Source: an uncultured Acetobacteraceae bacterium
GTDB taxonomy: Bacteria; Pseudomonadota; Alphaproteobacteria; Acetobacterales; Acetobacteraceae
NCBI GenBank assembly: GCA_964242115.1
Contig: CAXSZX010000001.1
Location: forward strand, 634,020-698,019
DNA: 64,000 bases
Reading direction: 5' to 3'
In this document: piece after piece, positions 971 through 57,780 of the stretch
Layout: each line of letters opens with the position of its first letter
Numbering within the stretch: the stretch's first letter is position 1
The notes under the pieces: generated by a model
Told to the model about the DNA's origin: nothing
Seen by the model: the letters and a program-made list of their open reading frames with translations, nothing else
Databases searched by the model: none
Position numbers and translations under genes: made by a program

Positions 971-1112
971 GCAAGGAAGCAAGGCCTTCTTTTCTGAAGA
1001 AAAGAAGCAAAAGACTTTTGGTCCGGCTGTCGCGGAGTTTCCTTCAGCCAGTACTCCAGGGAACAAAAGTTTTTTGGTTCTTTTTTTCAAAAAAGAACCG
1101 CTTGCTTTGCCT
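971..1112. repeat. MITE/REP-like palindromic element, copy R1
   Basis: Left hairpin arm CTTCTTTTC-TGAA-GAAAAGAAG, core GCTGTCGCGG, right arm GGTTCTTTTTTT-C-AAAAAAGAACC. Lies 30 bp after the stop of the Wzc-like gene. Confidence 0.85.
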
Positions 1113-1141
1113 GTCACCGGCCAAAACCTGAGACGGATGGT

Positions 1142-2287
1142 ATGAGAGGCACGATGCGCGTCGCGTTGCTGCAGAACTTCGTAGCGCCCTACAGGGTCCT
1201 CTTCTACGAGCGGCTCGCCGCCAAGGTCGGCGCGTTCCGCGTGTTCGTCTCCACGCCGATGGAGAGCGACCGCAACTGGGCGGTTGAATGGGGCACGCTG
1301 GACGTGGCCGTGCAACGCAACCTGACGCTGCACCGGCCGTACCGCGACAGCCTCGGCTTCTCGCGCGTGCTGCAGCTCCACGTGCCGTACGACACCATCC
1401 CGCGCCTGCTGCGATTCCGCCCGGACGCGGTCATCTCGGTGGAGCTCGGCGCGCGCAGCCTACAGGCGGTGCTCTATAAAAAGCTGCGGCCGCGCGTGCG
1501 CCTGCTGATCTGGTGCAAGCTGTCCGAACACAGCGAGCGCAACTGGGGACGCGCGCGCACCGCGCTCCGGCGCTACATCCTCGGCCATGCCGACGCCGTG
1601 CTGGTCAACGGCGAGAGCGGCGCGCGCTACGTGGCCCGCTTTGGCGTGCCGGACCACGCCATCCACCGCATCAACCAGCCGGTCGATGTCAGCCGTTTTG
1701 CCGCGGTGCCCCGCACCCGCGACGAGGGCCTGGCCTGCCGCCTGCTGTGTGCCGGCACGCTGACCGCGCGCAAGGGACTGGTGCCGTTCGTCCAAGCCGT
1801 CATCGCCTGGGCGCGGGCCAACCCGGACCGCCAGGTCGAGATCTGGTGGCTGGGCGACGGCGAGCTTGCCGGCGAGCTCGCCGCCCAGGTTCTGCCGCCC
1901 AACCTCACGCAGCGTTTCTGCGGCGCCGTGCCCTACGACGACATGCCGGCCTACTACGCCCAGTGCGACCTGCTCGCCTTTCCGAGCCTACTCGACGAAT
2001 GGGGCCTGGTGGTCAACGAGGCGATGGCGGCCGGCCTGCCGGTGCTGGGCAGCGTGCTGGCCCAGGCGGTCACCGAACTGGTGGAGGATGGCCAGACCGG
2101 CTGGACGTTCGACCCTTCCGACCCGGCCGCCATGCGACAGGCCATCGAGCGCACACTCGATACGCCGCCGGACAGGATGGCGGCGATGCGCGCGCTGGCG
2201 CGCCGGCGTATCGCGAGGCTGACGCCGGAGAGCGCTGCGGCTCGGATTGCAGATGCGCTTGAAGCGAAGCAAGCAGTTCTTTTTTGA
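1142..2287 (+). CDS. Glycosyltransferase family 4 (EPS biosynthesis)
   Basis: 381-aa ORF with GT4-like C-terminal domain (E..GLVVNEAMAAGLPVLGS). The stop codon TGA lies inside repeat copy R2. Confidence 0.75.
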   Translation: MRGTMRVALLQNFVAPYRVLFYERLAAKVGAFRVFVSTPMESDRNWAVEWGTLDVAVQRNLTLHRPYRDSLGFSRVLQLHVPYDTIPRLLRFRPDAVISVELGARSLQAVLYKKLRPRVRLLIWCKLSEHSERNWGRARTALRRYILGHADAVLVNGESGARYVARFGVPDHAIHRINQPVDVSRFAAVPRTRDEGLACRLLCAGTLTARKGLVPFVQAVIAWARANPDRQVEIWWLGDGELAGELAAQVLPPNLTQRFCGAVPYDDMPAYYAQCDLLAFPSLLDEWGLVVNEAMAAGLPVLGSVLAQAVTELVEDGQTGWTFDPSDPAAMRQAIERTLDTPPDRMAAMRALARRRIARLTPESAAARIADALEAKQAVLF

Positions 2288-2408
2288 AAAAAAGAACCAA
2301 AAAACTTTTGACTCCGCTGTCGCGCGCTCGCCGGGGAAAACCGCGACAGCCGCAGTGAAAGCTTTTTGCTTCTTTTCTCGAAAAAGAAGGCCTTCGCTTC
2401 CTTCCGTC
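2266..2408. repeat. MITE/REP-like element, copy R2
   Basis: Both hairpin arms are present. The core forms a palindrome (CTGTCGCG...CGCGACAG). Supplies the TGA stop of the glycosyltransferase. Confidence 0.85.
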
Positions 2409-2428
2409 GACTGCAGCAGGACACGCAG

Positions 2429-3651: not shown

Positions 3652-3790
3652 GCAAGGAAGGCAAGGCCTTCTTTTCTGAAGAAAAGAAGCAAAAGACTTC
3701 TTTCCCTGCTGTCGCGAAGGTTCTGCAGCACGTACCCAAGTGAGCAAAAGTTTTTTGGTTCTTTTTTCAAAAAAGAACCGCTTGCCTTTC
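3652..3790. repeat. MITE/REP-like element, copy R3 (canonical)
   Basis: Nearly identical to R1; 15 bp after the ATPase stop. Confidence 0.9.
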
Positions 3791-3825
3791 TGTTACAGCT
3801 CAACTGCCGCCGCACGCGTCGTCGG

Positions 3826-4790: not shown

Positions 4791-4822
4791 TCTGTTCCTC
4801 GCGTCATGGACAGTGCAGTCAG

Positions 4823-4951
4823 GCAAGCAGTTCTTTTTTGAAAAAAAGAACCAAAAAACTTTTGTTCCCTTGGGCGCGTGCTGCAGAAACCTCCGCGACA
4901 GCGGGGACAAAAGCTTTTTGCTTCTTTTTCTCGAAAAAGAAGCGCTTGCCT
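4823..4951. repeat. MITE/REP-like element, copy R4
   Basis: Arms plus a CGCGACAG core (inverted orientation). Confidence 0.85.
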
Positions 4952-6566
4952 AAACCTTGCTAGCCTCCTCGGCCACCAGCTCCTTCTTCGACAGCTTGCC
5001 GATCATCGTCTTAGGCAGCTCGTCACGTATTTCCACCTCGCGCGGCAGCTCGATCTTGCTGACGTAATCACCGAGAAAAGCGCGCAGCTCTTCGGCCGTC
5101 GCCGTGGTCCCGTCCTTCAACGTCACGAACGCTTTCGGCGCCTGGCCACGATACGCATCCGGCACGCCGATCACCGTCGCCTCGCGCACCGAGGGGTGCT
5201 GGTACAGCGCTTCCTCCAGCACGCGTGGATACACGTTGTAGCCGCCGCAGATGATCAGGTCCTTGATGCGGTCGACGATGAACAGGTAGCCGTCCTCGTC
5301 GAGGTAGCCGACGTCGCCGGTGCGCAGGCTCCCGTCGATCATCACACGCGCCGTCTCGTCGGGGCGGTTCCAGTAGCCGCGCATCACCTGCGGACCGCGG
5401 ATGCAGATCTCGCCGCGCTCGCCCTGCGGCATCAGGCGGGAGGGGTCGTCCAGCCCGCGTATCTCGATGGTGGTCTCCGCCATCGGCAGGCCGGCCGAGC
5501 CGTCCTTGTAGGTGCGGCCAGGTGGCGTGACACTGACCGAGGGCGAGGTCTCCGACAGGCCGTAGCCCTCCATCAGCCAGCAGCCGGTCATCGCCATGAA
5601 GCGGCTGCGCAGCTCCATTGGCAACGGCGCGCCGCCCGAGCAGCACACCTGCACGCAGCTGAGGTCCAGGTTCGCCTTGTGAGCGGCCTCGGTCAGCGCG
5701 CCGAAGATGGTGGGCACGGCGGGCAGGATAGTGGGCCGGCAGCGCGCGATGGTGGCCAGCACCTGGGCCAGTTCGAAGCGCGGCAGCAGCACCAGGGCGG
5801 CCGCACTCTGCACGCCGGCGAGCATCACCGAGGTCAGCGCGAAGACGTGGAACAGCGGCAGCACGCCGAGGATGCTGTCGGCCCCGCGCGGCCGGCTGCC
5901 GATCGCCATCCAGTTCTGCATGGCGTTGGCGGTGAGGTTGGCGTGTGTCAGCTCGGCGCCCTTCGGCACGCCGGTGGTGCCGCCGGTGTACTGCAGCACC
6001 GCGACGCTGGCCGGGTCGATCGTCACGGCGTCGGGCACCGCGGTGCCGCGCATGACGGCGGTCGCGCGCAGCGAGACGCCGTCGTCCGGCACGGACGCGA
6101 TCTCCGCCCGTTTGGCGATGCGGAACGCCTGGCCCTTCAGCCAGGGCAGCGCGTCGGCGAGGGAGCAGACGACGATCCGGCGCAGACCGGTGCGCGACGC
6201 CACCGCCGCCACCTTCGGGTAGACCGCTTTGAGGTCGATGGTGACCATCACCTCGGTGCCCGAATCGGTAATCTGGTGGGCCAGCTCGCGCTCGACGTAG
6301 AGCGGGTTGAAGTTGACCACGATGCCGCCGGCGCGCAGCACGGCGAAGAAGAACACCACCGAGTGCGGCGTGTTGGGCAGGCACAGCCCCACGCGGGTGC
6401 CGGGTGCGACGCCGATGTCCTGCAGGCCGCGCGTCGCCCGCGTCACTGCTTCGTCCAGCTGCCGGTAGGTCCAGCGCCTGCCCATGAAGTCGATGGCGGG
6501 CCGGTCCGGGAAATCGCGCACCGCGTCCTCGAGCAGGGCGGGCACTGGGCGGGCGGCGATCGGCAT
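4950..6566 (-). CDS. AMP-dependent synthetase/ligase (long-chain fatty acid-CoA ligase-like)
   Basis: 538 aa with AMP-binding motifs YTGGTTGVPKGAELTH, GYGLSE and TGDVGYLDEDGYLFIVDRIKDLI. Confidence 0.85.
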   Translation of the reverse strand: MPIAARPVPALLEDAVRDFPDRPAIDFMGRRWTYRQLDEAVTRATRGLQDIGVAPGTRVGLCLPNTPHSVVFFFAVLRAGGIVVNFNPLYVERELAHQITDSGTEVMVTIDLKAVYPKVAAVASRTGLRRIVVCSLADALPWLKGQAFRIAKRAEIASVPDDGVSLRATAVMRGTAVPDAVTIDPASVAVLQYTGGTTGVPKGAELTHANLTANAMQNWMAIGSRPRGADSILGVLPLFHVFALTSVMLAGVQSAAALVLLPRFELAQVLATIARCRPTILPAVPTIFGALTEAAHKANLDLSCVQVCCSGGAPLPMELRSRFMAMTGCWLMEGYGLSETSPSVSVTPPGRTYKDGSAGLPMAETTIEIRGLDDPSRLMPQGERGEICIRGPQVMRGYWNRPDETARVMIDGSLRTGDVGYLDEDGYLFIVDRIKDLIICGGYNVYPRVLEEALYQHPSVREATVIGVPDAYRGQAPKAFVTLKDGTTATAEELRAFLGDYVSKIELPREVEIRDELPKTMIGKLSKKELVAEEASKV

Positions 6567-10259: not shown

Positions 10260-12296
10260 ATGAACAGACGCATCCTGGCGGCCGGCGCCGCTTTCAGTCT
10301 GCTGAGCGTCGCCGCATCCGCGGCCGAGACCACGCAGACCTTCCCCACCGGCCCCTGGGGTTTCGACACCTCCGGCATGAACCGCAAGGTCACTCCCGGC
10401 AACAACTTCTTCGAATTCGCCAACGGCGCCGCGGTCGCCAGCATCGTCATCCCGCCGGACCGCACGAATTTCGGCGCATTCATCGCACTTGCCGACCTGT
10501 CCGAGCAGCGCGTCCACGCGATCCTGGACGAAGCCTCCGCCCACGTAGCCGACCAGCCGACGGACGCAATCGGCAAAGCTGGCGCCATGTTCAAGGCTTT
10601 CATGGACGAGGCCGCGATCGAGAAACTTGGCGCCGCACCGCTGAAGCCCGAGCTGGCCGAGATTACCGCGCTGAAAACGCCGGCGGATTTCGCGGCGCTG
10701 CAAGGACGCGCGCAGACGACGTTCCAGGGTTCGCTGTTCTCGATGGACATCGAGCCGGACGCGAAGGACCCGACCAAGTATTCGATCAACCTGGGTCAGG
10801 CCGGGCTCGGCATGCCGGACCGTGATTATTACATCTCCGCCCAGTTCGCCGACAAGAAAGCCAAATACGCGGCCTTCGTAACCAAGATGCTGACGCTGGC
10901 CGGCTGGGCCGATCCGTCCGGCAGTGCCGCAAAGGTCGTGGCCTTCGAGCAGAAGATTGCCGAAGCCAGCTGGGCGCGTGCGGACGAGCGCGACCCTGAC
11001 AAAGTGTACAACCCGATGACGCCGGCGGAGTTGGCACACAACGCGCCCGGTTTCGACTGGCCGGTGTTCTTCAAGGCGGCGCAGCTCGGCATGCCGGATC
11101 GGGTGGTCATCGCGGAGAACACCGCGGTGGAGAAGATTGCGGCGATCGCCGGCGCCGCACCGATGGACACGTTGCAGGCCTGGTCTGCCTTCCACCTGGC
11201 GACCAACGCCGCACCGGTGCTTTCCAAAGACTTCGTGACCACAGCTTTCGACTTCGACAATCGTGAGCTGCAAGGCCAGCCGCAGCAACGCCCGCGCTGG
11301 AAGCGCGGCGTGCATGCGACCGAGGCCGCACTGGGCGAAGCCGTCGGCGAGACCTACGTGCAACGTTACTACCCGCCGGAAGCGCAGACGAAGATGGAGG
11401 CGCTGACGCACGACCTGCGCGCCGCCTTTCGCGTCCGCCTGCAGCACAACTCCTGGATGCAGCCGCAAACGCGCGAGTTGGCGGTGGCCAAGCTGGATGC
11501 GTTCGACTTCCAGATCGGCAAGCCGAAGAAGTGGCGCGACTACACGTCGCTGCAGATCAACGCGCACGACCTGTACGGCGACGTGGAGCGCGGCACCGCG
11601 TTCGAATGGGCGTTCTGGCTGCAGCACCTTGGCCATCCGGTGGACAAGGACCAATGGGACATGACGCCGCAGACGGTGAACGCCTACAACAACCCTGTCT
11701 TTAATGAGGTCGTGTTTCCGGCCGCCATCCTGCAGCCGCCGTTCTTCGACGAGAAGGCGGACCCGGCGATCAACTACGGTGCGATCGGCGGCGTGATCGG
11801 CCACGAGATGACGCACGGCTTTGACGACGAGGGCCGCAAGTTCGACGCGATGGGCCGCCTGCACGATTGGTGGACCGCGGAGGACGCCAAGCACTTCGAC
11901 GCGCTGGGTAAACGGTTCGGCGCGGAATACGCGGCGATCGACGTGATGCCCGGCGCGCACATCAACCCGGCGCTGACGATGGGCGAGAACATCGCCGACC
12001 TCGGCGGGCTGACGCTGGCGCTGGACGCCTACCACGCGTCCCTGCACGGCCAGCCGGCGCCGGTGGTGGACGGCATGACCGGCGACCAGCGCGTGTTCCT
12101 CGGCTGGGCGCAGGTGTGGCGCGCCAAGGTGCGGCCGGACGCGGCGCGGCAGCGTCTGGTGACCGATCCGCACTCACCGCCGGTGGCGCGGGTGAACGGG
12201 CCGGTGCAGAACATCGACGCCTGGTACACGGCTTTCGATGTGAAACCGGGTGAGGCGCAGTTCTTGAAGCCTGAGGATCGTGTGAAGATCTGGTAG
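10260..12296 (+). CDS. M13 family zinc metallopeptidase (neprilysin/PepO-like), secreted
   Basis: 678 aa with signal peptide, HEMTHGFDDEGRKFD (HExxH) and a C-terminal ...W motif. Confidence 0.85.
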   Translation: MNRRILAAGAAFSLLSVAASAAETTQTFPTGPWGFDTSGMNRKVTPGNNFFEFANGAAVASIVIPPDRTNFGAFIALADLSEQRVHAILDEASAHVADQPTDAIGKAGAMFKAFMDEAAIEKLGAAPLKPELAEITALKTPADFAALQGRAQTTFQGSLFSMDIEPDAKDPTKYSINLGQAGLGMPDRDYYISAQFADKKAKYAAFVTKMLTLAGWADPSGSAAKVVAFEQKIAEASWARADERDPDKVYNPMTPAELAHNAPGFDWPVFFKAAQLGMPDRVVIAENTAVEKIAAIAGAAPMDTLQAWSAFHLATNAAPVLSKDFVTTAFDFDNRELQGQPQQRPRWKRGVHATEAALGEAVGETYVQRYYPPEAQTKMEALTHDLRAAFRVRLQHNSWMQPQTRELAVAKLDAFDFQIGKPKKWRDYTSLQINAHDLYGDVERGTAFEWAFWLQHLGHPVDKDQWDMTPQTVNAYNNPVFNEVVFPAAILQPPFFDEKADPAINYGAIGGVIGHEMTHGFDDEGRKFDAMGRLHDWWTAEDAKHFDALGKRFGAEYAAIDVMPGAHINPALTMGENIADLGGLTLALDAYHASLHGQPAPVVDGMTGDQRVFLGWAQVWRAKVRPDAARQRLVTDPHSPPVARVNGPVQNIDAWYTAFDVKPGEAQFLKPEDRVKIW

Positions 12297-12607
12297 GCAA
12301 GGAAGCAGTTCTTTTTAAGTGTCCGTTTGCAAAATCGCTTGGCGGCCATCTGTCGCGATGTCTCTGCTTCGGTGCTTACAGCCATAAAGGCTCGGCCTGC
12401 CCGCTCAAGCAGGTGGCGCAGGCAAGCAGATCCGCTCCGACGCCCTAAAACCACAGCAGTTGACACACCAAGCTAATTTTGCAGACCGACACTGAAAGAA
12501 GAAACAAACGACTTTCGTTCTCCGAGTACGCGCTGGCCAAGAAGTCCGCGACAGCAGAGAAAAAAGTTTTGCTTCTTTTTTTCAAAAAAGAAGGCCTTGC
12601 TTACTTT
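12296..12607. repeat. Long/composite MITE-like element R5: truncated arm+core and core+arm separated by ~190 bp
   Basis: A GGCAAGGAAGCAGTTCTTTTT arm follows the M13 peptidase stop. ...CGCGACAGCAGAGAAAAAAGTTTTGCTTCTTTTTTTCAAAAAAGAAGGCCTTGC lies at the far end. Confidence 0.6.
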
Positions 12608-13452: not shown

Positions 13453-13461
13453 GGCGAGGAA

Positions 13462-15526: not shown

Positions 15527-15662
15527 AAGGAAAGCAAGACCTGCTTTTTTGAAAACCAGCAAAAAACTTTTGGTCCTGCTGTCGCGGAGTTTCCGCCAGC
15601 GTGCACTCAAGGAAGCAAAAGTTTTTGGTTCTCTTTTTCAAAACGAACTGCTTGCCTTGCCT
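15527..15662. repeat. MITE/REP-like element, copy R7 (diverged arms)
   Basis: GCTGTCGCGGAGTTTCC core. Confidence 0.75.
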
Positions 15663-45555: not shown

Positions 45556-46265
45556 TGCAATCTCCGATCGAGGAAAGCGGTCGAGCGACCTGGGTTGATT
45601 GGGTTTTCTGGAAGCCAGAACAATCGCGCAGAGCGAAATTCATGCCGAGCAGGCATTGTCTGGCCGCGGGAGCAACTGCTGGCCGCCGCAACAGGTGCCG
45701 GTCTGATGGCGCCAAATCGTCACGAACATACTCGTCAGTGATAGTTACTTTGTCAAGAAATTCTATCGGGCGCTCATAGGATCGCTGCCAAACTGACGCA
45801 GAACCCAAAGCTGAACGTGCAAGCATTTACTTAGCTCCAGGAAGAGGGTTGCGTGAATTGCAAACACTCGGGATGTTGACGATGAAGCGATGGTTGACGT
45901 CAGGATGAATGACTGACTGTGCGTTCGGTAGACCCTGCTGCAGCCTGCAGCTGTTGCAAGTGGGCAAGATCACGTCATTGCTGCCCTGACTAATCAGAGT
46001 CGCTTACGAATGTCCGTCGAACCGAAAACACAATCATCGTGTTCGATGAGACGCAACACCTGATCGAGACCGGCCCGAGACGCATCCGTCGAACTGGGCG
46101 TTTCATCAAGAAGCTATCCAAAGCGAGCCTGCGTTCGGCTCGCCGCCGCTGCAGAGCCTGACCGGTGAACGTTCAATCCATGCGCTGGATGCCCGAGGCT
46201 TCCACGTTTACGCGTCCGATAACGACCACCCTTGGGTCTTCCAGAGCTGCCGGCCTCGCCACGCC

Positions 46266-46316
46266 GCGACAGCCGCACCGGAAGTTTTGCTGCTTTGAAA
46301 AAAGCCGGCCTTGCTG
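46266..46316. repeat. MITE/REP-like half element R24 (core + arm)
   Basis: Seen directly in sequence. Confidence 0.6.
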
Positions 46317-46383
46317 TCTTCGCCGAGCCGTCAGGAAACCAAAGGCTCGACGTTGCACTGGTCATGCCCCGTCGCCTCCCAAC

Positions 46384-47621: not shown

Positions 47622-47757
47622 GCAAGAAAGCAAGGCCTGCTGTTTTGAAAAAAGCAGCAAGAAACTTTTACTCCCGGGTGCACGCTGCAAGAAACTCCGA
47701 GACAGCAGAACCAAAAGTTTTTTGCTGCTTTTTTTCAAAAAAGCAGGCCTTGCTTTC
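47622..47757. repeat. MITE/REP-like element, copy R25 (CTGC/GCAG variant)
   Basis: Starts 3 bp after the MFS transporter stop. Confidence 0.85.
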
Positions 47758-47799
47758 TTTCTTTGGGCCCAAGCCGAACAGTTGCGAGGAGGCACGGCC

Positions 47800-48582
47800 A
47801 TGATCCTGTACGACCACCCGCTTTCGTCTTACGCCCAGAAGGTGAAGATCGCGCTCCGCGAAAAAGGCGTCGCGTTCGAGCGCATGTTGCCGGAGGATTT
47901 CGGCACCGGCCGGCGCGACACGGCGTTCGCCGCCGCTAACCCGCGCGGCGAAGTGCCCGTGCTGCTACCGGACGGCAAGACGCCGATCTTCGACTCCACC
48001 GTCATCCTGGAATACATCGAGGAACGCTGGCCCGAGCCGCCGCTGCTGCCTGCTGACAAGCTGGCGCGCGCGCAAGCGCGAATGACCGAAGACGTGTGCG
48101 ACACACAATACGAAGCCGTCAACTGGGGTTTTGGCGAGCTGCTGTGGTTCCGGCGCGCCGATGGAGCGCTCGCGGAGACGCTGAAGGCAGCCGCGGCGCG
48201 CGACACGCAGGCACTGCAGCGGTGGCTCACCGAGCGGCTGGGAAATGCGGACTGGTTCGGCGGCGAACGCTTCGGTTGGGCGGACGCGGCGGCCGCACCG
48301 ATGGTCAACCGGTCCGTACATTACGGACTCGGCCCGGATCGGGGCTCGCCGCTGACGCGGTGGCACGCGCGGTTGCGGGAGCGCCCGGCGGTGGCGGAGA
48401 CGTTCGCCGAGTTCGACGCCGCCGCCGCCCGGATGGCAGCCGCGGCCGACTTCTATCGCACGGGCGGCCGCCGGCGGGAGTATCGCGATCACCGCTTGGA
48501 GTGGATGATCCGTGCTGGGGGGATCGACGTGGTGCTTATTGGGCTTCGCGAGAAAACGATTCGGTTTTCCTGGCCCGGATAA
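47800..48582 (+). CDS. Glutathione S-transferase
   Basis: MILYDHPLSSYAQKVKIAL, GEVPVL, and the SD sequence AGGAGG 7 nt upstream. Confidence 0.85.
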   Translation: MILYDHPLSSYAQKVKIALREKGVAFERMLPEDFGTGRRDTAFAAANPRGEVPVLLPDGKTPIFDSTVILEYIEERWPEPPLLPADKLARAQARMTEDVCDTQYEAVNWGFGELLWFRRADGALAETLKAAAARDTQALQRWLTERLGNADWFGGERFGWADAAAAPMVNRSVHYGLGPDRGSPLTRWHARLRERPAVAETFAEFDAAAARMAAAADFYRTGGRRREYRDHRLEWMIRAGGIDVVLIGLREKTIRFSWPG

Positions 48583-48716
48583 GGAAGCAAGCAGTTCTTT
48601 TTTGAAAAAAAGAACCAAAAAACTTTTGTTCCCTTGGGCGCGCGTTGCAGGAAATGACGGCGACAGCAGGACCAAAAATCTTTTGCTTCCTTTTTTCAGA
48701 AAAGAGCGCCTTGCTT
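48582..48716. repeat. MITE/REP-like element, copy R26
   Basis: Lies between the GST stop and the giant protein stop. Confidence 0.85.
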
Positions 48717-48718
48717 TC

Positions 48719-51700
48719 TTACCCGTGATGCACCAGCACAAACCAATCCTGATGCGCCGTCTCTGTCGGTAGGCTGCGCGACGTTGCAGGTTCTGCCGAC
48801 CCACTCTGTGCCACGATGTCGATCGTCAGACCGGCCACGTTGGCGAAGTCGCTCGTCAGGTGGATCGCTTCGTTGCTGATCGCGCCGCCCTTATAATCGA
48901 TCACGTAGGTGCCGCTGGCGCTGCCCGCGGCGATCGGCCCGAAATTGCCGGCGGTGACGCCGCTGCCGGACAGGTCGCGCCCGTTGATGGTGCCGCCGTT
49001 CACCGTACTCTGCAGCGCGCCGCGCAGTGCGGCCGAGCCTGCAGCGCCGGTGTTTTCGACCTCGAAGTAGGCGGCGTGGCCTGCCGCCACCGCGATGGTG
49101 AGCGTGCCGTTCAGGTCCTGGATGGTGGTGCCGTTGACGCCCACGACGCTGAGCTGCGTGCCCTGACCGTCGATGGTGCCGGTGACGCCGGCGAACGCGT
49201 TGTAGGTGTTGCCGGTGCCGGCGGCAGTGTTGACGTAGTCGCCGGCCACCGTGAGCGTGGTGGAGCTGGTGTTCAGCGTGCCGCCGCCGATGGTCAGCGT
49301 GGAGACCGTGCTGTTGGCCGCGCCGTTGGCGCTGGCCAGCACGGCGGAGCTGCCCCTCGCACCGATGCTGAGCGCGCCGCCGGTGAGCGCAGCGGTGTCG
49401 GTGAAGCCGCCGTTGTCCAGCACCAGACCGGTGTTGTCCAGGCCGCCGGTAAAGGCGAGCGTGCCGCCGCTGACGGTGGCGATGGTGCCGCTGTTGGCGA
49501 ACGGGTCGGCGATGGTGGCTGTACCCCGGCCGGTCTGTTCGAACAGCCCGGTGCTGGTGAACGTGCCGGTGCCGGTGAGCGAGGACACGCCGGCGATGTC
49601 GAACACCCCGGCGTAGGTGAGCGAATCCGAGATGGCCAGCGACGCCCGGTTGATCAACGCGATCTCGCTGACGGTGATGGGCGCGGTGTCGGCCAGGGTG
49701 AAGCGGTTGTCGTCAAGGCAGAGCGTGCCGGTGCCGGTGACGGTCCCGGTGATGGTGTCGCGGCCGGTCAGGTCCAGCGTGCCGCCAGTGGCACTCAGCG
49801 TGCCGGCGCTGGCCAACCCGCCGGCGAGCGTGCCGAAGCCGGAGAGCAGCGAGGTCGCCCTGTCGTTGAGCAGCTTGGAGGTGAGGTCGCCGCCACCGAG
49901 CAGGATGGTGCCGGCGTTGGAGATGCCCAGCGTGGTGGTGTAGGAGCGATCGCCCAGGACCTGCAGCTGCGCGCGTGCTGCGATGGTGGTCAGGCTCGCC
50001 TCGATTGCGGTGCCGCCGAAGCTGACCGACGCGCCGGCGCCGGAGAGGATCAGGTCGGCGGAAAGGGTTTTCACCGCGGCGCCGGTGATGCTCAGCGTGG
50101 CACCGTCGCCGCTGGCGACCGCCGCGTAGGTGCCGCCGGTGAGCACGCCCGCGGCGCTGTCGTTGGTCAGCGTGGCGCCGTTAGAAAAGGTGACGTTGCT
50201 GCCGTCATCGGCCTGGATCAGGCCGGCGTTGGTGTAGGTGCCATTCTGGATGGCCAGCCCGCCAGTGCCCACGCCGAGCAGCTTGCCGGTGGCGGTGTTT
50301 GCCCCGGTGCTGCCCAGGCTGATGGTCAGCCCGCTGGTGCCGGTCGACGAGATGGTGCCGGCGTTGACCAGCGTGAGCTGGCCGGCGCCGATTTGGCCGG
50401 AACCCTCGATGGTGTTGTTGACGTTGTCGAGCACGTCGGCGGTGGCGACGCCGTAGATGCGGTCGGCGGTGTTGGCATCCGAAAATGCGAGGATGCCGCC
50501 GCCGTTCAACGTCAGGGTCGGGCTGTTGATGACCAGGTCGCTGTCGTAGCCGGTGGAGTTCAGCCCGATGGTGCCCTCGTTGGTGATCGTGCCGAGCACA
50601 GTCATGGTGCTGCCGGTCGCCACTTCCAGCGCGCCCTTCAGCACCACGGCGTGCGCGGAGCCGTCGATCGTCGTCTGCCCGTTTGCGCTGAAGTCGCCGG
50701 TGCCGGTGCTCAGCAACAGGCCGCCCTGCACGTCGCCGCCGTTGAGGTAGATGGTGCTGCTTGCGGCCAGGATGGTGCCGGTGGCGTTGCTGACGGTGCT
50801 CTGCAGTGCCAGGCCGGCGGCACCGGTCGACTCGATCAGGCCGTCGTTGGTCACCACCGAACCGGTGCTGATGACGAGCTGGTTGCTGGCCCCTGTCGCG
50901 TCGATCACGCCGGCTGTGCCGTTGACGAGCGTGAGCTGGCCGGCGCCGATCTGGCCGGAGCCCTCAATAAGGTTGTTGAGGTTGTCGAGCACGTTGGTGC
51001 CGGACGCGCCGTATATGCGGTCTGCAGAGTTGTTGTCGGTGAGCTGGATCGTGCCGCCGCCGGTCAGCGTCACCGTTGGGCTGCCGACGATCAGGTCGCT
51101 GTCGTAGCCGGTGGAGTTCAGCCCGATGGTGCCCTCGTTGGTGATCGTGCCGAGCACAGTCATGGTGCTGCCGGTCGCCACTTCCAGCGCGCCCTTCAGC
51201 ACCACGGCGTGCGCGGAGCCGTCGATCGTCGTCTGCCCGTTTGCGCTGAAGTCGCCGGTGCCGGTGCTCAGCAACAGGCCGCCCTGCACGTCGCCGCCGT
51301 TGAGGTAGATGGTGCTGCTTGCGGCCAGGATGGTGCCGGTGGCGTTGCTGACGGTGCTCTGCAGTGCCAGGCCGGCGGCACCGGTCGACTCGATCAGGCC
51401 GTCGTTGGTCACCACTGAACCGGTGCTGATGACGAGCTGGTTGTTGGCCCCCGTCGCGTCGATCACGCCGGCCGCGCCGTTGACGAGCATGAGCTGGCCG
51501 GCGCCGATCTGGCCGGAGCCCTCGATGAGGTTGTTGACGTTGTCGAGCACGTTGGTGCCGGACGCGCCGTATATGCGGTCTGCGGTGTTGTTGTCGGTGA
51601 GCTGGATGGTGCCGCCGCCGGTCAGCGTCACCGTGGGGCTGCCGACGACCAGGTCGCTGTCGTAGCCGCTGGAGTTCAGCCCGATGGTGCCGTCGTTGGT

Positions 51701-53062
51701 GATGGTGCCGAGCAGGGTCAGCGTCTCGCCGGTGTTCACCTCGACGGTGCCGAAATTGCTCAGGTTCTGCAGCGTGCTCTGGCTGGTGACCGCGAACGAA
51801 CCGCCGCCGCTGCTCTCCAGCATGCCGCCGACGATTGTGGCGCCGTTCAGCTGTACCGTGCCGCCGGCAGAGAGGATGGTGGCGGTGCCGGCGTCGTCGA
51901 TCACCGATTGCAGGATCAGCCCCTGGGGGCCCGCCGCTTCCAGCAGCCCGTTGTTCTGCAGCGAGCTGGTCTGAATGTAGAGCGCGTTGGCGGTGCCGGT
52001 GGCGCTGATGGTGCCGTCGTTGACCAGGTTGAGCTGGCCGGCGCCGATGGTGCCGCTGCCGGAGATGGTGTTGTTGAGGTTGACCAGGGTGTCGCCGGCG
52101 TTGCCGCCGTAGAGACGGTTGGCGGCATCCGCGTCGCCCAGCACGACGGACCCGCCGCCGGTCAGCGTGACCGTGCTGGTCAGCGTGCCGGTGGCGCCGA
52201 ACACCACGTCGCTGTTGTAACCGGTGGATTGCACCGACAGCACGCCGGTGTTGTTCAGCGTGCCCAGCACGCTCAGCGTCTCGCCGGTAGCCACCACGAG
52301 GCTGCCGGCGTTGGTCACCTGGTGGGCGGTGCCGTCCAGTGTGGAGTGCGACTCCACCTGGACCGAGGACCCGGCAGTGCTGCTGAGCGTGCCGCCCAGG
52401 ATGGTGGCGCCGTTGAGGAAGACGTTGCCGCCGTTGGCCTGTATTCTGCCGGTGGTGCCGTCGTTGATGGCGGTCTGCAGCACCAGCCCGCCGCTGCCCT
52501 TCGTCGCCTCGAAGATGCCGGCGTTGCTGGCGGTCAGGGACCCGGTGTTGATGATCAGCTGGTTGCTCGCGCTTGCGTCCACCAGGCCGCCTGCGTCGTT
52601 GGTGAAGGCGAGCGCCGTGCCGGCACCGATCTGCCCGGCGCCGACGATCTTGTCGTTCACGTTGACGAACTGGTCGCCTGCGGTGCCAGCCACGATGATG
52701 TTGTTGTCGTTGCCGTTACCCAACAGGATGGTGCCGGCGCCGTTCAGCGTGACTGTCGGGGCACCGATGACCAGCGCGCTGTTGTAGCCTGTGGAGTTCA
52801 GCGACAGCGTGCCGGCGACGGACAACGTGCTGGCAGCCGACGAGCCGACGGTGAGCGTCTCGCCGGTGCTGACGGCCAGCGTGTCAAGCTTGCCCAGGGT
52901 GAGCGCCTGCACCGCGTCGTTGGTAGACACCGCGATGGAGGCGGCCGAACTCGTGTTGATGGTCACAGTGTCGGACCCACCGGGAACGCCGTTGGGCGAC
53001 CAGTTCGCAGCCGTGTTGAAGTTGCCGTCGCCGGCTGCGCCGGTCCAGGTATATGCGGTCAT
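48719..53062 (-). CDS. Giant (1447 aa) Gly/Thr/Asn-rich beta-helix repeat protein (adhesin-like / autotransporter-associated beta-strand repeat type), probably secreted
   Basis: Long ORF with ~186-aa internal repeats, including two ~97%-identical 558-bp units. N-terminus is MTAYTWTGAAGDGNFNTAANWSPNGVPGG. Confidence 0.75.
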   Translation of the reverse strand: MTAYTWTGAAGDGNFNTAANWSPNGVPGGSDTVTINTSSAASIAVSTNDAVQALTLGKLDTLAVSTGETLTVGSSAASTLSVAGTLSLNSTGYNSALVIGAPTVTLNGAGTILLGNGNDNNIIVAGTAGDQFVNVNDKIVGAGQIGAGTALAFTNDAGGLVDASASNQLIINTGSLTASNAGIFEATKGSGGLVLQTAINDGTTGRIQANGGNVFLNGATILGGTLSSTAGSSVQVESHSTLDGTAHQVTNAGSLVVATGETLSVLGTLNNTGVLSVQSTGYNSDVVFGATGTLTSTVTLTGGGSVVLGDADAANRLYGGNAGDTLVNLNNTISGSGTIGAGQLNLVNDGTISATGTANALYIQTSSLQNNGLLEAAGPQGLILQSVIDDAGTATILSAGGTVQLNGATIVGGMLESSGGGSFAVTSQSTLQNLSNFGTVEVNTGETLTLLGTITNDGTIGLNSSGYDSDLVVGSPTVTLTGGGTIQLTDNNTADRIYGASGTNVLDNVNNLIEGSGQIGAGQLMLVNGAAGVIDATGANNQLVISTGSVVTNDGLIESTGAAGLALQSTVSNATGTILAASSTIYLNGGDVQGGLLLSTGTGDFSANGQTTIDGSAHAVVLKGALEVATGSTMTVLGTITNEGTIGLNSTGYDSDLIVGSPTVTLTGGGTIQLTDNNSADRIYGASGTNVLDNLNNLIEGSGQIGAGQLTLVNGTAGVIDATGASNQLVISTGSVVTNDGLIESTGAAGLALQSTVSNATGTILAASSTIYLNGGDVQGGLLLSTGTGDFSANGQTTIDGSAHAVVLKGALEVATGSTMTVLGTITNEGTIGLNSTGYDSDLVINSPTLTLNGGGILAFSDANTADRIYGVATADVLDNVNNTIEGSGQIGAGQLTLVNAGTISSTGTSGLTISLGSTGANTATGKLLGVGTGGLAIQNGTYTNAGLIQADDGSNVTFSNGATLTNDSAAGVLTGGTYAAVASGDGATLSITGAAVKTLSADLILSGAGASVSFGGTAIEASLTTIAARAQLQVLGDRSYTTTLGISNAGTILLGGGDLTSKLLNDRATSLLSGFGTLAGGLASAGTLSATGGTLDLTGRDTITGTVTGTGTLCLDDNRFTLADTAPITVSEIALINRASLAISDSLTYAGVFDIAGVSSLTGTGTFTSTGLFEQTGRGTATIADPFANSGTIATVSGGTLAFTGGLDNTGLVLDNGGFTDTAALTGGALSIGARGSSAVLASANGAANSTVSTLTIGGGTLNTSSTTLTVAGDYVNTAAGTGNTYNAFAGVTGTIDGQGTQLSVVGVNGTTIQDLNGTLTIAVAAGHAAYFEVENTGAAGSAALRGALQSTVNGGTINGRDLSGSGVTAGNFGPIAAGSASGTYVIDYKGGAISNEAIHLTSDFANVAGLTIDIVAQSGSAEPATSRSLPTETAHQDWFVLVHHG
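50553..51665 (-). repeat. Near-identical 558-bp tandem duplication inside the giant repeat protein gene
   Basis: Antisense track ORFs 50553..50750 and 51111..51308 are identical. 50751..51107 versus 51309..51665 differ at only a few residues. Confidence 0.8.
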
Positions 53063-53334
53063 TGTTGTTCCCTCCGAATGCCATCAGCGCGGCTCGTTTC
53101 GAAGGCTGGCTAACATCATGGCATAAGCGTTCCCCACCAATCAGCGGTTGTTATTTGGGTGGGCCGTTTCAGTCTGCACGGCGATTGTGCATCCAGAAAT
53201 CGGTGGTGGTTTTTATCACTGGCATCAAGCCTTCGTTGCAAGGTGTAGACTACTGCGTCCGGAGGGAGGCTGCCGGCGTCGGCTGATGCGAGGTGGGTTT
53301 GCAAGCGAAGCGAGAGGTCCCGGGACACGCCGCA

Positions 53335-53398
53335 GAAGATTCCGCGACAGCGATGCCAAAAGTTTTTTGTTTTTTTGCAAAAAGCAGGCCTTGCTTTC
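53335..53398. repeat. MITE/REP-like half element R27
   Basis: Seen directly in sequence. Confidence 0.6.
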
Positions 53399-53811
53399 TT
53401 ACTGAACCGTTAACATGCGACCACCACAACGAGAGCGGCCGACTTCACACTACCTGTCGGTCTAGTGGCATACTCATCGGTCGGCGTAACGTTTCTCCTC
53501 GCGGGCGTGATCAGGCCAGGCCTACCTGTTGCGGTTGAGGCCCTGACGTGTTGCGAGGCCGGCACGACGCGATGAGTCGTCGCACTTCTGCACGCACAAT
53601 CTTAATCATTACGCGGTAACGTGTCGTAATCATCTTGACGTCTCTAAAAAGAGACGGTAGAAAAGACCATCGCTTTGCAACCGCTGCCCCGCTCGTTTGT
53701 ATCCCAGCTTTTTCTTCCGGCGCCGATGGCGTGCGCGGCGTGGACACGTCGCGAAGAAATGCATGAGACCCACGAGAACGGGGTGCGGCTCACCTGTTAC
53801 GGGACCGGACC

Positions 53812-55508
53812 ATGATGACCAAGACCCTGTCGCTCGCGCTTTCCGCCGCTGTCTTGCTGGGCTTCTCGCCTGCTTCGGTCGCGTCCCCAACATTGGCTGC
53901 TAGCACGGTGGGAAAGCCTGCCGCCGCGTCCAGCTTCGCGGCCGGCCACCCTGCCGGTTCGGCTGACGTGCAAAGCTCCAAACAGGTCACGAGTTGGGTT
54001 GCCGCCAGCAACAGCTTCCCGCAATGGCTGGTGATCGACCTCGGTGCCATCTACAAGCTGAACAGCGTCAAGCAGGTCTTCGCCAACATTGACCTCTGGT
54101 CTTACAGGATCGAAGGCTCAAACGACGATTACGGGAACGACGCGTGGTGGACCACGCTGGCCGACAACAGTTCGGGCGTGCTCGGCCAGAGCTTCACCAG
54201 CACGGTCAGCGGCAGCTTCCGCTACCTGCGGCTCTACGTCACCGGATCAAAGAAAAACACAGCGAGCAGCATCGGACTGTCAGTCAACGGAACGCTGGTC
54301 ACGCAAAGCTCCGCGTCGGTGCCGACGCCGAAACCGGCTGCAACCGGGGCCTACATTGTGGGCGCGCAGGCGTGTGATCTGTGGGCCAACAAGATGGATT
54401 GGCAGACCCTGAATGGCTACCCGGCCCGTGCCTCGATCATGGGCACCTACAACGAAGCATACGACGTCGCGACCGACTGGCAGATCAAGATGGCGGTTGA
54501 ACACGGCATCTCCTTCCTGCAGCCATGCTGGTATCGCCTTGCCAACAACGAGGGTGCCAGCACCGTCATGGCGAGCTACGATCAGCTCCTGCAATCGATC
54601 GCCAACTCGGCGACGTATCGTAATTCGATCAAGTTCAGCATCGACTGGATCAACGTCGGCACCGGTTTGGGCGGCGCATCAGGGGTTGCCGACTTCGTCA
54701 ACAACCTGGTTCCGTACTGGATCAACACCTACTTTTCAAAATCGAACTACCTCAAGTTCGGCGGCAAGCCGGTGCTGGCGATCTATGACTTCGAAACGTT
54801 CATCAGCCAGATGGGCAGCCTGGCCAACGCCCAGTCGGCCATACAGTCGTTTCGCAAAGCCGTCTCCAAGGCCGGCTTCGCTGGCCTGATCCTTGAAACC
54901 CAGCAATCAGGTTCCACCACGCCGGCAGATCACTGGGTGGTCGGGACCCGCGTGGCGTGGACGTCAAGTTCGGCAACTACTACACCAAGGACTACGCGCA
55001 TACGAACGCGGATGCGGCCGCTGCCGGCTTCGACTTCGCCTTTGCCTACCACCTCCCAAGCTTCACCGACCTGATGGTGTCGCAAACACCGACCGACGCG
55101 CAGGCTACCAGCGAACAAGAGCAGGCATGGAGCAATTGGCTGCAGTACTCCGCGGTGCCGACAATCGTGACGGCGTCGATGGGCTGGAACGCCGCCCCCT
55201 GGGCGGAGAACAACATCAGCTGGAAGCTGACGACGGCTGACTATGAATCCTTACTGGTGTCGGCCAAGTCGGCGATGTCGGCGCGCCGCAGCGGCATGCC
55301 CACAAACATGATGCTGCTTGATAACTGGAACGAGTATGGCGAAGGCCACTACATCGCGCCGACACAGGGTGACTCCTACGGCTACCTGGATGCGGTGGGT
55401 GCGGTGTTCTCGCCGAACTGGCCGTCGGTCGTGCCCTCCAGCATAGACACGATGCCGAACGTGACGGCCATTCCGCAGATGCTGGCCCCGAGCGGCAGCG
55501 CAAACTAG
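53812..55508 (+). pseudogene. Secreted glycoside-hydrolase-like protein with N-terminal discoidin (F5/8 type C) domain, frameshifted near 54950
   Basis: Track ORF 53812..55074 turns to Thr/Arg-rich nonsense after ~54950. ORF 54957..55508 is the in-family continuation. A direct 5-bp duplication CGTGGCGTGG sits at the junction. Confidence 0.6.
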
Positions 55509-55580
55509 TCGCTTCGGGGATTATGGGACAGGTAAGATCGTCCTGCGCCAAGTGTCCTGGTTTTGTCTTTCAACTTCCGG

Positions 55581-55722
55581 GGAGCAAGCAAGGCCTTCTT
55601 TTCTGAAGAAAAGAAGCAAAAGACGTTTGTCCCTGCTGTCGCGGAGTTTTCTGCAGCGTCCGCCCTAGAGTACAAAAGTTTTTTGGTCCTTTTTTCGAAA
55701 AAGAATTGCTTGCTTTCTTGTT
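55581..55722. repeat. MITE/REP-like element, copy R28 (canonical)
   Basis: Seen directly in sequence. Confidence 0.9.
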
Positions 55723-55733: not shown

Positions 55734-56696
55734 CTACACGCTGTTGGCTTCACGCCGAGCATCCTCGTCCAGCAAAGCTTCGATCGACACCCTGAGCCAC
55801 CTCAGACTACCACCCAGAGCCACCTGCACGTTTGACGCACCTGGCGTAAGGATGGTGCGTCCCCGGTGCTGAGGCGTGCTGTCCACCGACACTGTTCCTT
55901 TGACAAGGTAGGTCCGCTCGGGGGCTTGTGCCACGAGCACCGTGATCGCATCGTGAGGCAAGCAGCCGTCGATGCCTTCGGCCTCCCGGTAGTGGTCCAT
56001 GTAGGCCGCGTGTGACCGAGCGATCAGCATTCCATGCTCGGTTCTGCTGTTTTGCTGATAGGCAGCCATTGTAGAGCGTGGAAGTTGCACCTTGCGGCAG
56101 AGGTCGAGTGGCACGATGGTGACAGGCAGGCCAAGGCCAAGCGTTATTCGCAACGCATCCGGATCGCAATAGGCGTTGAACTCCGCCGACGGCGTGATGT
56201 TGCCGACGTCGAAATACACCCCGGACATCAGCACGATACGTTCGACGGCGGACCCGTACCAGGCAACCAGACCGGGAATGTTCGTGGCCGGCCCTAGGCC
56301 GATCAAAACCACCGAGGAGACGGAACGCGGCGGCGTGCTGCCCAGCATGACGACCGGCGCGCCGGTCAGGCTCGCAACCAGGGCCTGGTCCATATGACCG
56401 GTGGCGCCTCCCAGTCCGTCCGAGCCGTGCACGTGGCGGGCGTCCCTGGTAAAGCCGTCTTGCGCACACGACGCACCGGTCAGCACCGTCCAGCACGCCG
56501 AGCGGCCGAGCAGCCCGCGGAACAGCAGCGCGTTGCGCGTCGCGATATCCACCGGAACGTTGCCAAAAACTGTCGAGATGGTCAGGTCGGTGCCGAACAG
56601 GCGGCTGGCGAGGAGGAGTGCGAGGCCGTCATCGACTCCCATGTCGGTATCGATGTGGACGTGCGTCAGAGGCTCACTCCCATACACTAGCTGCAT
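55734..56696 (-). CDS. Nucleoside hydrolase (inosine-uridine preferring type)
   Basis: DTDMGVDD aspartate cluster. Confidence 0.8.
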   Translation of the reverse strand: MQLVYGSEPLTHVHIDTDMGVDDGLALLLASRLFGTDLTISTVFGNVPVDIATRNALLFRGLLGRSACWTVLTGASCAQDGFTRDARHVHGSDGLGGATGHMDQALVASLTGAPVVMLGSTPPRSVSSVVLIGLGPATNIPGLVAWYGSAVERIVLMSGVYFDVGNITPSAEFNAYCDPDALRITLGLGLPVTIVPLDLCRKVQLPRSTMAAYQQNSRTEHGMLIARSHAAYMDHYREAEGIDGCLPHDAITVLVAQAPERTYLVKGTVSVDSTPQHRGRTILTPGASNVQVALGGSLRWLRVSIEALLDEDARREANSV

Positions 56697-56720
56697 TGCC
56701 TCGAACCCCGAGGCGTCGGG

Positions 56721-57640
56721 TCAGTCGATGCAGACCTCCCTGCGGTAAGGCAGGGCGGGTTGCGCGCCCGTCCGCGTCACACACACGCCGGACGCGGCGA
56801 TACCGAGCAGGGCAGCCTGATCCAGTCCCATGTCCTCGCAGAGCCCTGCTACGAGCCCGCCGATGAAGCAGTCGCCGGCCGCCGTGGTGTCCCGCACGGG
56901 CACCACGCGGGCAGGCAGTACGCGCTCGCCGGATATGTCAGAAAGCAGCACGCCTTTGGCGCCCAGCGTGACCACGACGTTGGCAACGCCGCGCTCACGC
57001 AACGCGCGGGCGGCGGCGACGGCGGAGTCGTGGTCGTGCACGCGAATGCCTGTCAGGCGTTCGGCCTCGCTCTCGTTGGGAATCAGGTAGTCGACCGCGG
57101 ACCACAGACCGGCCGGCAGAACCTCCGCGGGCGCCGGGTTGAGGACCACCCGGACGCCGCAGGATCGCGCCAACCGGGCTGCGCGGTCCACGGTAGCCAC
57201 CGGCACTTCCAACTGCAGCACGACGAAGGCGGAGCGGCCGATGAGCCCGGACGCGGCGTCGACGTCGGTGTCGGCGAGCGAGAGGTTGGCACCTTGCGCC
57301 ACCAGAATCCGGTTCTCGCCCGACGGTTCGACCATGATCATGGCGACGCCGGTGGGGCCCTCAGCGGTGCCGACATGTCCGACGTCGATGCCGTCGCGCC
57401 GCAAGGCTGCACGAAGCTGTGCGCCGAAACCGTCGTCGCCGACCTTGCCCACCATGGCAACGCGCGCGCCCATGCGGGCGAGCGCCACGGCCTGGTTGGC
57501 GCCCTTGCCGCCCTCGGCCACCGTGAAGCCGTCGGCGATGATCGTCTCGCCGGCGTCCGGCAGACGCGCCGCGCGCACCACCAGGTCCATGTTCAGGCTG
57601 CCGATCACGGTTGCGGAGCCGGCCAATGATTTCTCCAATT
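56721..57640 (-). CDS. rbsK: Ribokinase
   Basis: VIGSLNMDLV, GGKGANQAVA, TTAAGDCFIGG. Probable TTG/GTG start. Confidence 0.75.
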
Positions 57641-57647
57641 CAAAGTG

Positions 57648-57780
57648 AGCAAGGCCTGCTTGCTTGAAAAAAGCAGCAAAAAACATTCGGTAAGGCCGTG
57701 GTCGAGCTTCCCTCAGCGAATAGCCAAGAAAACACAAGTTTTTTGGTTCTATTTTTCAAAAAACAACTGCTTCCTTGCCT
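57648..57780. repeat. MITE/REP-like element, copy R29 (diverged)
   Basis: Lies between the ribokinase start and the TonB receptor stop. Confidence 0.75.

Follow-up and report, generated by a model that had tools for sequence, protein, structure and literature searches.

The 64,000-nucleotide stretch of contig CAXSZX010000001.1 from an uncultured Acetobacteraceae bacterium (the window, always taken here at its full length) contains 31 copies of a palindromic intergenic repeat of about 140 bp, which is probably a non-coding, non-autonomous mobile repeat of REPIN-like architecture that is moved in trans. A reading of the letters alone (below, the sequence-only reading) had proposed an element like a miniature inverted-repeat transposable element (MITE) or a repetitive extragenic palindrome (REP); our results support that proposal and place the architecture closer to a REPIN than to a classic MITE. 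The left-hairpin pattern CTTCTTTTC-N4-GAAAAGAAG, with up to three mismatches allowed, matched 16 times in the window and not once in 100 dinucleotide-preserving shuffles, and a repeat finder returned families of 18–22 copies for each arm and 6–8 copies for the whole 120–140 nt unit. A hidden Markov model built from 10 seed copies gave 31 non-overlapping loci with best E-values of 1e-47, and a second model built from 209 copies recovered the identical 31. The shuffles and the profile E-values together exclude chance and low complexity as the source of the repeat. Nearly all loci scored on both strands, as a palindrome does; orientation was assigned from the asymmetric core. The loci, 24 near full length and 7 partial, lie between positions 970 and 57780 and total 3,991 nt, or 6.2% of the window; their GC content is 46%, as against 67.5% for the rest of the window. 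Earlier estimates of about 29 loci, about 6% of the window and a GC background of about 68% agree closely with these counts, and the estimate of about 40% GC for the repeat itself was slightly low. A Pfam scan of 50 window translations (the major open reading frames, ORFs, up to 62.8 kb, with ybaB, the last two genes at 62794–64000 and a few short or unassigned ORFs left out) found no transposase, integrase or HUH protein, in line with the earlier statement that the window holds no transposase; all Pfam matches of the scanned ORFs were to housekeeping or metabolic families.

The consensus of 100 aligned copies reads nAAGnAAGCAAGG-CC-TTCTTTTTT-G-AAAAAAAGAA-GCAAAAAACTTTTG-(core: nnnCnGCTGTCGCGGAnnTTTCnGCAGCGCGCnCnnnAGGGAn)-CAAAAGTTTTTTGG-TTCTTTTTTT-C-AAAAAAGAA-CTGCTTGCTTTn. 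The unit consists of two inverted modules of about 43 nt, which we call arms, around a variable spacer of 40–65 nt; each arm combines an (AAGN)3 terminal inverted repeat, an A/T-rich hairpin of 9–11 bp and a CAAAA-loop-TTTTG mini-hairpin, and the terminal inverted repeats of this common form are AAGnAAGCAAGG and CCTTGCTTnCTT. The hairpin arms CTTCTTTT..AAAAGAAG and GGTTCTTTTTT..AAAAAAGAACC, their CAAAAG/CTTTTG flanks, the CTGTCGCGG core and the approximate reverse complementarity of left and right arms, all taken from the sequence-only reading, were confirmed. The arms nevertheless differ systematically in that the closing pair is C-G in the left hairpin and G-C in the right, so that arms paired with each other would form C·C and G·G mismatches. 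Arm columns are at least 90% conserved, whereas the core is kept only at a box, GCTGTCGCGGA. Seven copies (16481, 28182, 34365, 36592, 37458, 38174 and 39684) belong to a long variant with an extra CGGCTGAAACGACAC behind the box. Partial matches numbered 119, comprising 57 left halves, 19 right halves and 43 other truncated forms.

Two structures compete for this sequence. The whole unit folds, on either strand, into one rod of about 65 bp with an RNA free energy of −55 to −73 kcal/mol (z-scores −4.5 to −8) and a DNA free energy of −40 kcal/mol; alternatively, each arm folds into its own local hairpins. In the local-hairpin model 93% of alignment cells were paired, and 88 cells (a count of sequences, not of independent events) had changed on both sides of a pair, compared with 22.7 ± 4 in shuffles. 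Compensatory pairs occurred at alignment columns 27-44 (UA 82, GC 11), 33-38 (UA 69, CG 19), 173-195 (GC 78, CG 11) and 175-193 (UA 71, CG 13). Under the long-rod model these same variable columns were 13–31% unpaired, and double changes barely exceeded those in shuffles. We therefore rejected the long-range rod as the conserved structure: it has the lowest free energy, yet pairing in the variable columns is within each arm and not between arms. The nested local hairpins of the sequence-only reading gained covariation support and its single large hairpin did not. An orthologous pair, window 4816–4951 and L022 1898–2084, likewise carries two compensatory hairpin changes, with a core that can no longer be aligned. 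When pairs were read in the mRNA sense, G-U (38) was no more frequent than A-C (33; p=0.64), and the orientation of copies relative to transcription was random (79 same, 89 opposite). The lack of a G-U excess and of an orientation bias argues against a strand-specific RNA structure and favors hairpins maintained at the DNA level, where they would form on single-stranded DNA or as a cruciform.

When one genome of each bacterial species was searched with the pattern of left arm plus box, at least 97 stretches matched; among the matches listed, all but one chance match came from at least 15 uncultured Acetobacteraceae/Rhodospirillales genomes, lichen bins, a Lobaria lichen bin and a bog bin among them. 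At least 22 stretches were spread over 0.19–3.7 Mb of the 4.7 Mb chromosome OZ240673.1, so the family extends beyond the window, as had been predicted. The profile found at least 310 copies in the 637 kb of listed stretches, a density of 0.3–0.7 per kb per genome, or 0.15–0.46 per kb once the copy that triggered each block is subtracted. With 0.3–0.8 copies per kb, at least 1000 copies per genome are plausible, and extrapolation from about one copy per 2 kb gives probably about 2,000. To compare close relatives at one place, we fetched the dnaX-ybaB-recR region via RecR homologues, with the following result.

L098: RecR 98% identical to that of the window; 16 copies in 20.6 kb; 11 of 11 comparable copies in the same position and orientation as in the window
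L099: RecR 90% identical; 1 copy
L100: RecR 87% identical; 0 copies
L101: RecR 83% identical; 4 copies, one of them filling the ybaB-recR gap
L102: RecR 79% identical; 1 partial copy

The window RecR is 98% identical to the RecR on contig ctg80244l of ENA ERZ22147080. Density among the relatives ranged from 0 to 0.8 per kb, and the copies are distributed as expected after a burst in one lineage, not as an ancestral regulatory site would be. Beyond this lineage, a diverged copy with both arms fills a 139-nt gap separating two genes on plasmid pL11-A of Pseudoroseomonas cervicalis (NZ_CP115852.1 258700–258816; L103 4001–4118); it has neither the CTGTCGCGG box nor AGCAAGG ends, and its host species is culturable. 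Three IMG/VR contigs also hold copies. One of them, IMGVR_UViG_3300009510_000288 (L110), has copies at 2326–2459, 4941–5072, 11166–11291 and 14825–14905 and encodes a Baseplate_J protein and a glycine-rich, tail-fibre-like protein; the Baseplate_J gene marks the contig as prophage or phage, and phage carriage is a possible route of spread between hosts.

Full copies share a mean pairwise identity of 60%. One subfamily, however, is 95–98.6% identical at loci megabases apart in OZ240673.1 (L062 6776–6917, L085 5810–5951, L095 5734–5875 and L009 5144–5285) and in the related CAXUIR (L067, L050, L038, L024 and L041). Alignment of these copies with their flanks gave a unit of about 199 bp with extra outer inverted ends, ATACCAACCGGCCTGAAGGTTGACCGTTCCG ... 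TGAGTCAGCATC..GCTGGTAT (ATACC...GGTAT), and a core that is a perfect 15-bp palindrome with the box on both sides, GACTCCGCTGTCGCG...CGCGACAGCGGAGTC. This young form does not occur in the window, whose copies retain only traces of the outer part (TTGAC...GTCA). The near-identity of dispersed copies, together with the copies on prophage sequence, shows that the repeat has moved recently.

We measured conservation after insertion at orthologous positions of the window and L098. Identity was 91.1% (741/813) in the arms and 96.7% in the GCTGTCGCGGA box, compared with 76% in the rest of the core and 78% in other intergenic DNA; codon positions 1, 2 and 3 gave 94.8%, 97.1% and 83.5%. The arms thus exceeded both third codon positions (p=6e-9) and other intergenic DNA (p=3e-16). 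Ascertainment bias was judged to be small, since window copies score 70–140 bits, far above the detection limit of about 20 bits, and at this level of divergence neutral substitutions would not have made them undetectable. The values indicate that purifying selection acts on arms and box or that gene conversion between the numerous copies keeps them uniform. Where genomes have diverged further (74–82% gene identity), copies still occupied the same gaps, with the orientation flipped in three of six; turnover or core inversion occurs too.

We propose that an enzyme encoded elsewhere in the genome mobilises the repeat in trans, and that it probably targets hairpins formed in single-stranded DNA, as RAYT/HUH transposases do. 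The hairpins themselves, the missing target duplications of the common form and the random orientation would all be explained in this way. Once a copy is inserted, its arms and box would be held above synonymous conservation by purifying selection or gene conversion, and as by-products copies would end reading frames that enter them through stop codons in the hairpin loops, would place a double-stranded stem of about 65 bp in any transcript that crosses them, and would serve as breakpoints for gene gain and loss. Several observations weigh against this proposal. The Pfam scan revealed no mobilising enzyme in the window, and tblastn with an E. coli RayT sequence, a weak probe, found no match in the approximately 0.7 Mb of loci. 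Left and right halves 0.3–3.7 kb apart, considered as the possible ends of an autonomous copy, surround ordinary genes (Ada, PNGase A) and no transposase, and that candidate was rejected. No clean empty site was found among L003/L052/L066, L002/L004 and window/L098/L099/L100, where divergence or rearrangement of the flanking intergenic DNA is too great. Compensatory changes can also come about in the absence of selection, through template switching that corrects quasi-palindromes, and some apparent retention at orthologous positions may reflect loss followed by re-insertion into saturated gaps. The arms (consensus AGCAAGGCCTTCTTTTTTGAAAAAAAGAAGCAAAAAACTTTTG) also have neither of the heads of the two described REP superfamilies, which carry a GTAG or a CGTC tetranucleotide at the palindrome end (PMC3733652); the CGTC class is missing from Acetobacteraceae in the same survey (PMC3733652). 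With a REPIN-like architecture and no such head, the repeat would work like a REPIN and is not assignable to the REP/RAYT families. Finally, the young-form ends, read as A-TA-CC...GG-TA-T, could represent a TA duplication at an ATAT target, i.e., a MITE of the DDE type.

This last point leads to the view that the repeat is a classic MITE, a deletion derivative of an insertion sequence (IS) with a DDE transposase (IS630/Tc1-like or IS5-like) that inserts at TA, which we hold to be unlikely, though deserving of real weight. The parent IS would act through the terminal inverted repeats, by cut-and-paste or copy-and-paste, with expected ends ATACCAAC...GGTAT, and the hairpins would merely reflect long inverted repeats. 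Terminal inverted repeats are indeed clear in the common form, the 199-bp ends can be read as TA-CC...GG-TA, and a size of 140–200 bp, AT-richness, lack of coding capacity, intergenic location and a patchy, lineage-specific burst all fit. For the TA within ATA..TAT of the young form, a duplication and a piece of the inverted repeat are both possible readings. In the common form, however, no target-site duplication was detected at any offset for k=2–8 in 192 copies. An apparent excess of TA at −6/−2 and +2/+6 proved to be the fixed A of the AAG end: T precedes this A in 11% of cases, below background, and left and right TA occurrences are uncorrelated. No IS with matching ends was found in the approximately 0.7 Mb of loci or in a plasmid collection, where the outer ends gave chance matches only (E=8). 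In addition, a DDE transposase has no need of internal hairpins with compensatory changes, and the arms remain conserved after insertion.

The placement of the copies bears on the question of whether they serve the host. Mapping by third-position GC and Pfam identified about 47 ordinary genes in the window, including those for glycosyltransferases, aminotransferases, an M13 peptidase, dapB, a MarR regulator, SRP RNA-dnaX-ybaB-recR, pyrF, bacA, RNase H and a TonB receptor. Copies occupy all nine convergent gaps and 12 tandem gaps; of the nine divergent gaps, five hold full copies and two more hold partial ones. The 31 copies, placed by nhmmer with the 209-copy profile, are as follows.

970–1112, plus strand: full copy (E=1.8e-42) in the tandem gap between a ParA-like gene (stop 940) and a GT4 gene (start 1142)
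2261–2404, minus strand: full copy; the GT4 gene (1142–2287) enters it by 27 nt and stops at the hairpin-loop TGA
3652–3793, plus strand: full copy in a convergent gap
4816–4951, minus strand: full copy adjoining the stop (4950) of an AMP-binding enzyme gene; orthologous copy in L022 (78% gene identity)
12294–12316, minus strand: right-end fragment at the M13 peptidase stop; weak (E=0.025)
12495–12609, minus strand: copy without the last hairpin, in a convergent gap
13454–13626, plus strand (orientation ambiguous): copy with an aberrant, enlarged core and without the CTGTCGCGG box
15525–15662, plus strand: full copy in a divergent gap
16481–16630, plus strand: full copy, long variant, in a convergent gap
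18498–18634, minus strand: full copy between the divergent dapB and MarR genes
19754–19836, plus strand: left half only; a full copy stands at the orthologous L098 site
23413–23544, minus strand: first of two copies in the ybaB-recR gap
23659–23733, minus strand: half copy, second of the two in the ybaB-recR gap
25235–25375, plus strand: full copy containing the last approximately 19 codons of pyrF
26137–26270, minus strand: full, partly degenerate copy that forms the left edge of a 4.6 kb segment missing in L098
28182–28335, minus strand: full copy, long variant, in a divergent gap
30858–30996, minus strand: full copy at the right edge of that 4.6 kb segment
33030–33125, plus strand: copy without the right arm, first of two in a convergent gap
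33162–33278, plus strand: copy with a degenerate left hairpin, second of two in that convergent gap
34365–34518, plus strand: full copy, long variant, in a divergent gap
36592–36747, minus strand: full copy, long variant, exactly filling the gap between bacA and a GDSL lipase gene
37458–37609, plus strand: full copy, long variant, forming an entire convergent gap from stop 37459 to stop 37608
38174–38331, plus strand: full copy, long variant, adjoining a permease stop (38331)
39684–39839, plus strand: full copy, long variant, in a divergent gap
41310–41446, minus strand: full copy with CTGC-type hairpins, in a convergent gap
46263–46322, minus strand: left half only, upstream of or overlapping an MFS gene start
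47622–47761, minus strand: full copy in the tandem gap between MFS and GST genes
48580–48723, minus strand: full copy forming an entire convergent gap from stop 48582 to stop 48719
53322–53401, minus strand: left half only, in a divergent gap
55579–55721, plus strand: full copy in a convergent gap
57642–57780, plus strand: full copy filling the gap from the pfkB start (57638) to the TonB-receptor stop (57779)

For placement statistics we used 345 copies from the window and the fetched loci. All but six (339/345) fell outside gene calls; 168 lay in tandem, 79 in convergent and 37 in divergent gaps, and 77–78% of tandem and convergent gaps were occupied, compared with 43% of divergent ones. The median distance from a stop codon to the profile boundary was 5 nt, and 160 of 326 adjacent stops lay within 10 nt of an element end. 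Some genes run into the repeat: the last approximately 19 codons of pyrF (25319–25377, tail EKGKQFFVEKKNQKTFVT*) are encoded by it, with the stop inside the copy and the same arrangement in L098, and so are the last nine codons of the GT4 glycosyltransferase gene (2261–2287, tail EAKQAVLF*), which also ends inside its copy. Such invading frames terminate at stop codons in the hairpin loops. Repeats can also inflate automatic gene calls; the mechanical dapB ORF (17717–19318, minus strand) is 533 aa long, with a DapB match limited to residues 292–531, and its upstream extension runs through the copy at 18498–18634. One of the few repeat-free gaps in the window contains a small signal recognition particle (SRP) RNA (RF00169, 49.9 bits) at 20647–20745, directly upstream of dnaX-ybaB-recR.

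REP, ERIC and Correia elements act in transcript processing and stability through RNase III and the blocking of exonucleases. By analogy, our repeat might be a host cis-element, domesticated or never selfish, that selection keeps in nearly every gap, either as a module for transcript ends, RNA processing or stability, or as a site for DNA topology or a nucleoid protein (a cruciform-prone A-tract island); we regard this, too, as improbable. Conservation of arms and box above synonymous sites in orthologous copies speaks for such a role, as do the filling of every convergent window gap, the closeness of stops, the depletion in promoter-bearing divergent gaps and the stability of the stem on either strand; canonical terminators, moreover, were not enriched in the window (17 found, 15.5 expected). 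Nevertheless, L099 and L100 carry the same genes with one and no copy in 20 kb, showing that the repeat is dispensable, and neither an orientation bias nor a G-U excess in the transcribed sense was seen. The A/U-rich hairpins have no clean U-tract and would make poor intrinsic terminators. Promoter depletion and accumulation at 3' ends are also the neutral expectation for any insertion, and gene conversion among about 2,000 similar copies could give the same conservation. As a distinct candidate, the intrinsic (Rho-independent) terminator was rejected on account of A/U-rich stems, three G-C pairs, interrupted tails (CTTGCTTTGC) and the random orientation.

An intermediate position is that a mobile repeat has been partly domesticated, which may be so. 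Carried to its full extent, this would make the repeat a standard gene spacer of the lichen-associated clade: a DNA module under selection that forms a hairpin or cruciform, binds a protein at its box (GCTGTCGCGGA), punctuates transcription units and possibly serves as a site of gene-cassette exchange. About 2,000 copies per genome would then be kept by purifying selection instead of continued transposition. We consider the whole of that account to be distinctly unlikely.

Copies do coincide with differences in gene content. A 4.6 kb window segment (26266–30862), encoding a methyltransferase, an RgpF-like rhamnan synthesis protein and a trypsin-like protein, is bounded by two copies in the same orientation; at this place L098 has a single copy (12375–12533), and the sequence on either side of it matches what lies outside the window pair, which suggests that the segment was gained or lost through recombination at the repeats. 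Between L002 and L004, from genomes 93% identical, a full copy in one corresponds to a copy cut exactly at a hairpin in the other at two places (L002 3717–3829 versus L004 4089–4227, and L002 6447–6517 versus L004 6313–6468), with unrelated sequence past the truncation. Breaks of this kind within copies of closely related genomes indicate that the repeats act as recombination breakpoints. That the copies are attC-like sites at which an integron-like or comparable site-specific recombination system moves genes in and out is, by contrast, very improbable: the imperfect dyad symmetry of about 140 bp directly behind stop codons, the three-gene segment between same-orientation copies and the other breakpoints in hairpins would fit, but the ends do not match RYYYAAC/GTTRRRY core sites, copies stand in both orientations between housekeeping genes (dnaX, recR, dapB, pyrF) on both strands, no integrase was found in the window, and the single indel is equally explained by ordinary homologous recombination between repeats.

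Other features of the window concern its genes. A 1,447-aa ORF (48719–53062, minus strand) consists of tandem repeats of 555–558 bp with 71–97% mutual identity and no significant Pfam domain, and probably encodes a large repetitive surface protein. Four to five tandem repeats of 27 nt (9-aa units) occur at 27117–27251, in the N-terminal part of a 620-aa methyltransferase-domain gene (26264–28126). Two overlapping ORFs, 53812–55074 and 54957–55508, both match the WbsX glycosyltransferase family and are likely a single frameshifted gene; the surrounding 53–56 kb region has a lower GC content (58–59%), and this stretch may have been acquired horizontally.

If the density seen here holds genome-wide, about 2,000 copies making up 6% of the DNA would, to our knowledge, place this family among the densest single bacterial repeat families. 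Its host clade is known only from metagenomes, as Acetobacteraceae of lichen, moss and bog. Many matching contigs end inside repeat copies; the frequency of the repeat breaks short-read assemblies and probably degrades both assembly and binning of these genomes. Annotation is affected as well, because reading frames extend into copies and false ORFs are called across them, and the repeats mark the points at which close relatives have gained or lost genes. Sister lineages at 0–0.8 copies per kb offer a natural test of the limits to which intergenic DNA can be filled, and the contrast in density could separate domestication from concerted evolution as the cause of arm conservation. The young 199-bp subfamily gives the best chance to define the true ends and the target, and the P. 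cervicalis copy makes laboratory work possible. If domestication proves true, the repeat would represent a new kind of system; otherwise its value would lie with specialists and with those who assemble lichen genomes.

With respect to known systems, no Rfam covariance model matched the repeat at its gathering threshold (in the window only the SRP RNA passes), and we found no description of it in 8 million full texts of the literature, literal sequences included, as the claim of an uncharacterised family would have it. Sub-threshold matches to a plastid psbA 3'UTR and to miRNA precursors, at about half the threshold, were rejected as generic long A/U hairpins. What appears to be new, judged from Rfam and these full texts, is this particular family; its kind, the bacterial intergenic palindromic repeat of REPIN/MITE type, is known. 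The repeat is denser by a wide margin than the REPs of E. coli and the Correia elements of Neisseria. It most resembles the REPINs moved by RAYT (Bertels & Rainey 2011; PMC5581495), with which it has in common an inverted doublet of hairpin units with a variable spacer, hundreds to thousands of extragenic copies without coding capacity or target duplication, singlet remnants (here half copies), a long whole-unit hairpin and a location beside stop codons. It differs from them in its 43-nt A/T-rich units in a 67% GC genome, where classical REPs are 20–40 nt long and usually GC-rich, in having no GTAG/CGTC head, an extra conserved spacer box and a systematic difference between left and right hairpins, in a density of about 0.5 per kb or about 6% of the DNA, and in that no RAYT was found in the window Pfam scan or in the weak-probe tblastn of about 0.7 Mb.

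Correia elements, not known from outside Neisseria, carry 26-bp ends together with a TA duplication and a site for IHF. Like our repeat, these elements (CREE) are very numerous intergenic inverted repeats of 100–155 bp near gene ends, with two length classes that differ by an internal segment, and they are often cotranscribed, with a stem cleavable by RNase III; our repeat differs in having no duplication in its common form and in its ends, which appear unrelated to the Correia ends. The ERIC/IRU and RIME-type mosaics of enterobacteria and rhizobia share the form of imperfect palindromes of about 100–130 bp in transcribed intergenic regions, a patchy copy number among related species and the lack of a known transposase, whereas their sequence is unrelated, their density far lower (tens to hundreds of copies), and they are not A/T islands in GC-rich DNA. 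Integron attC sites and the Vibrio cholerae repeats, for their part, are imperfect dyads of about 60–140 bp right behind gene stops in which structure is conserved over sequence, attC being recognised as folded single-stranded DNA; our copies differ from these in having no core-site motifs, no integrase in the window and no co-oriented cassette array, and in standing in both orientations among housekeeping genes.

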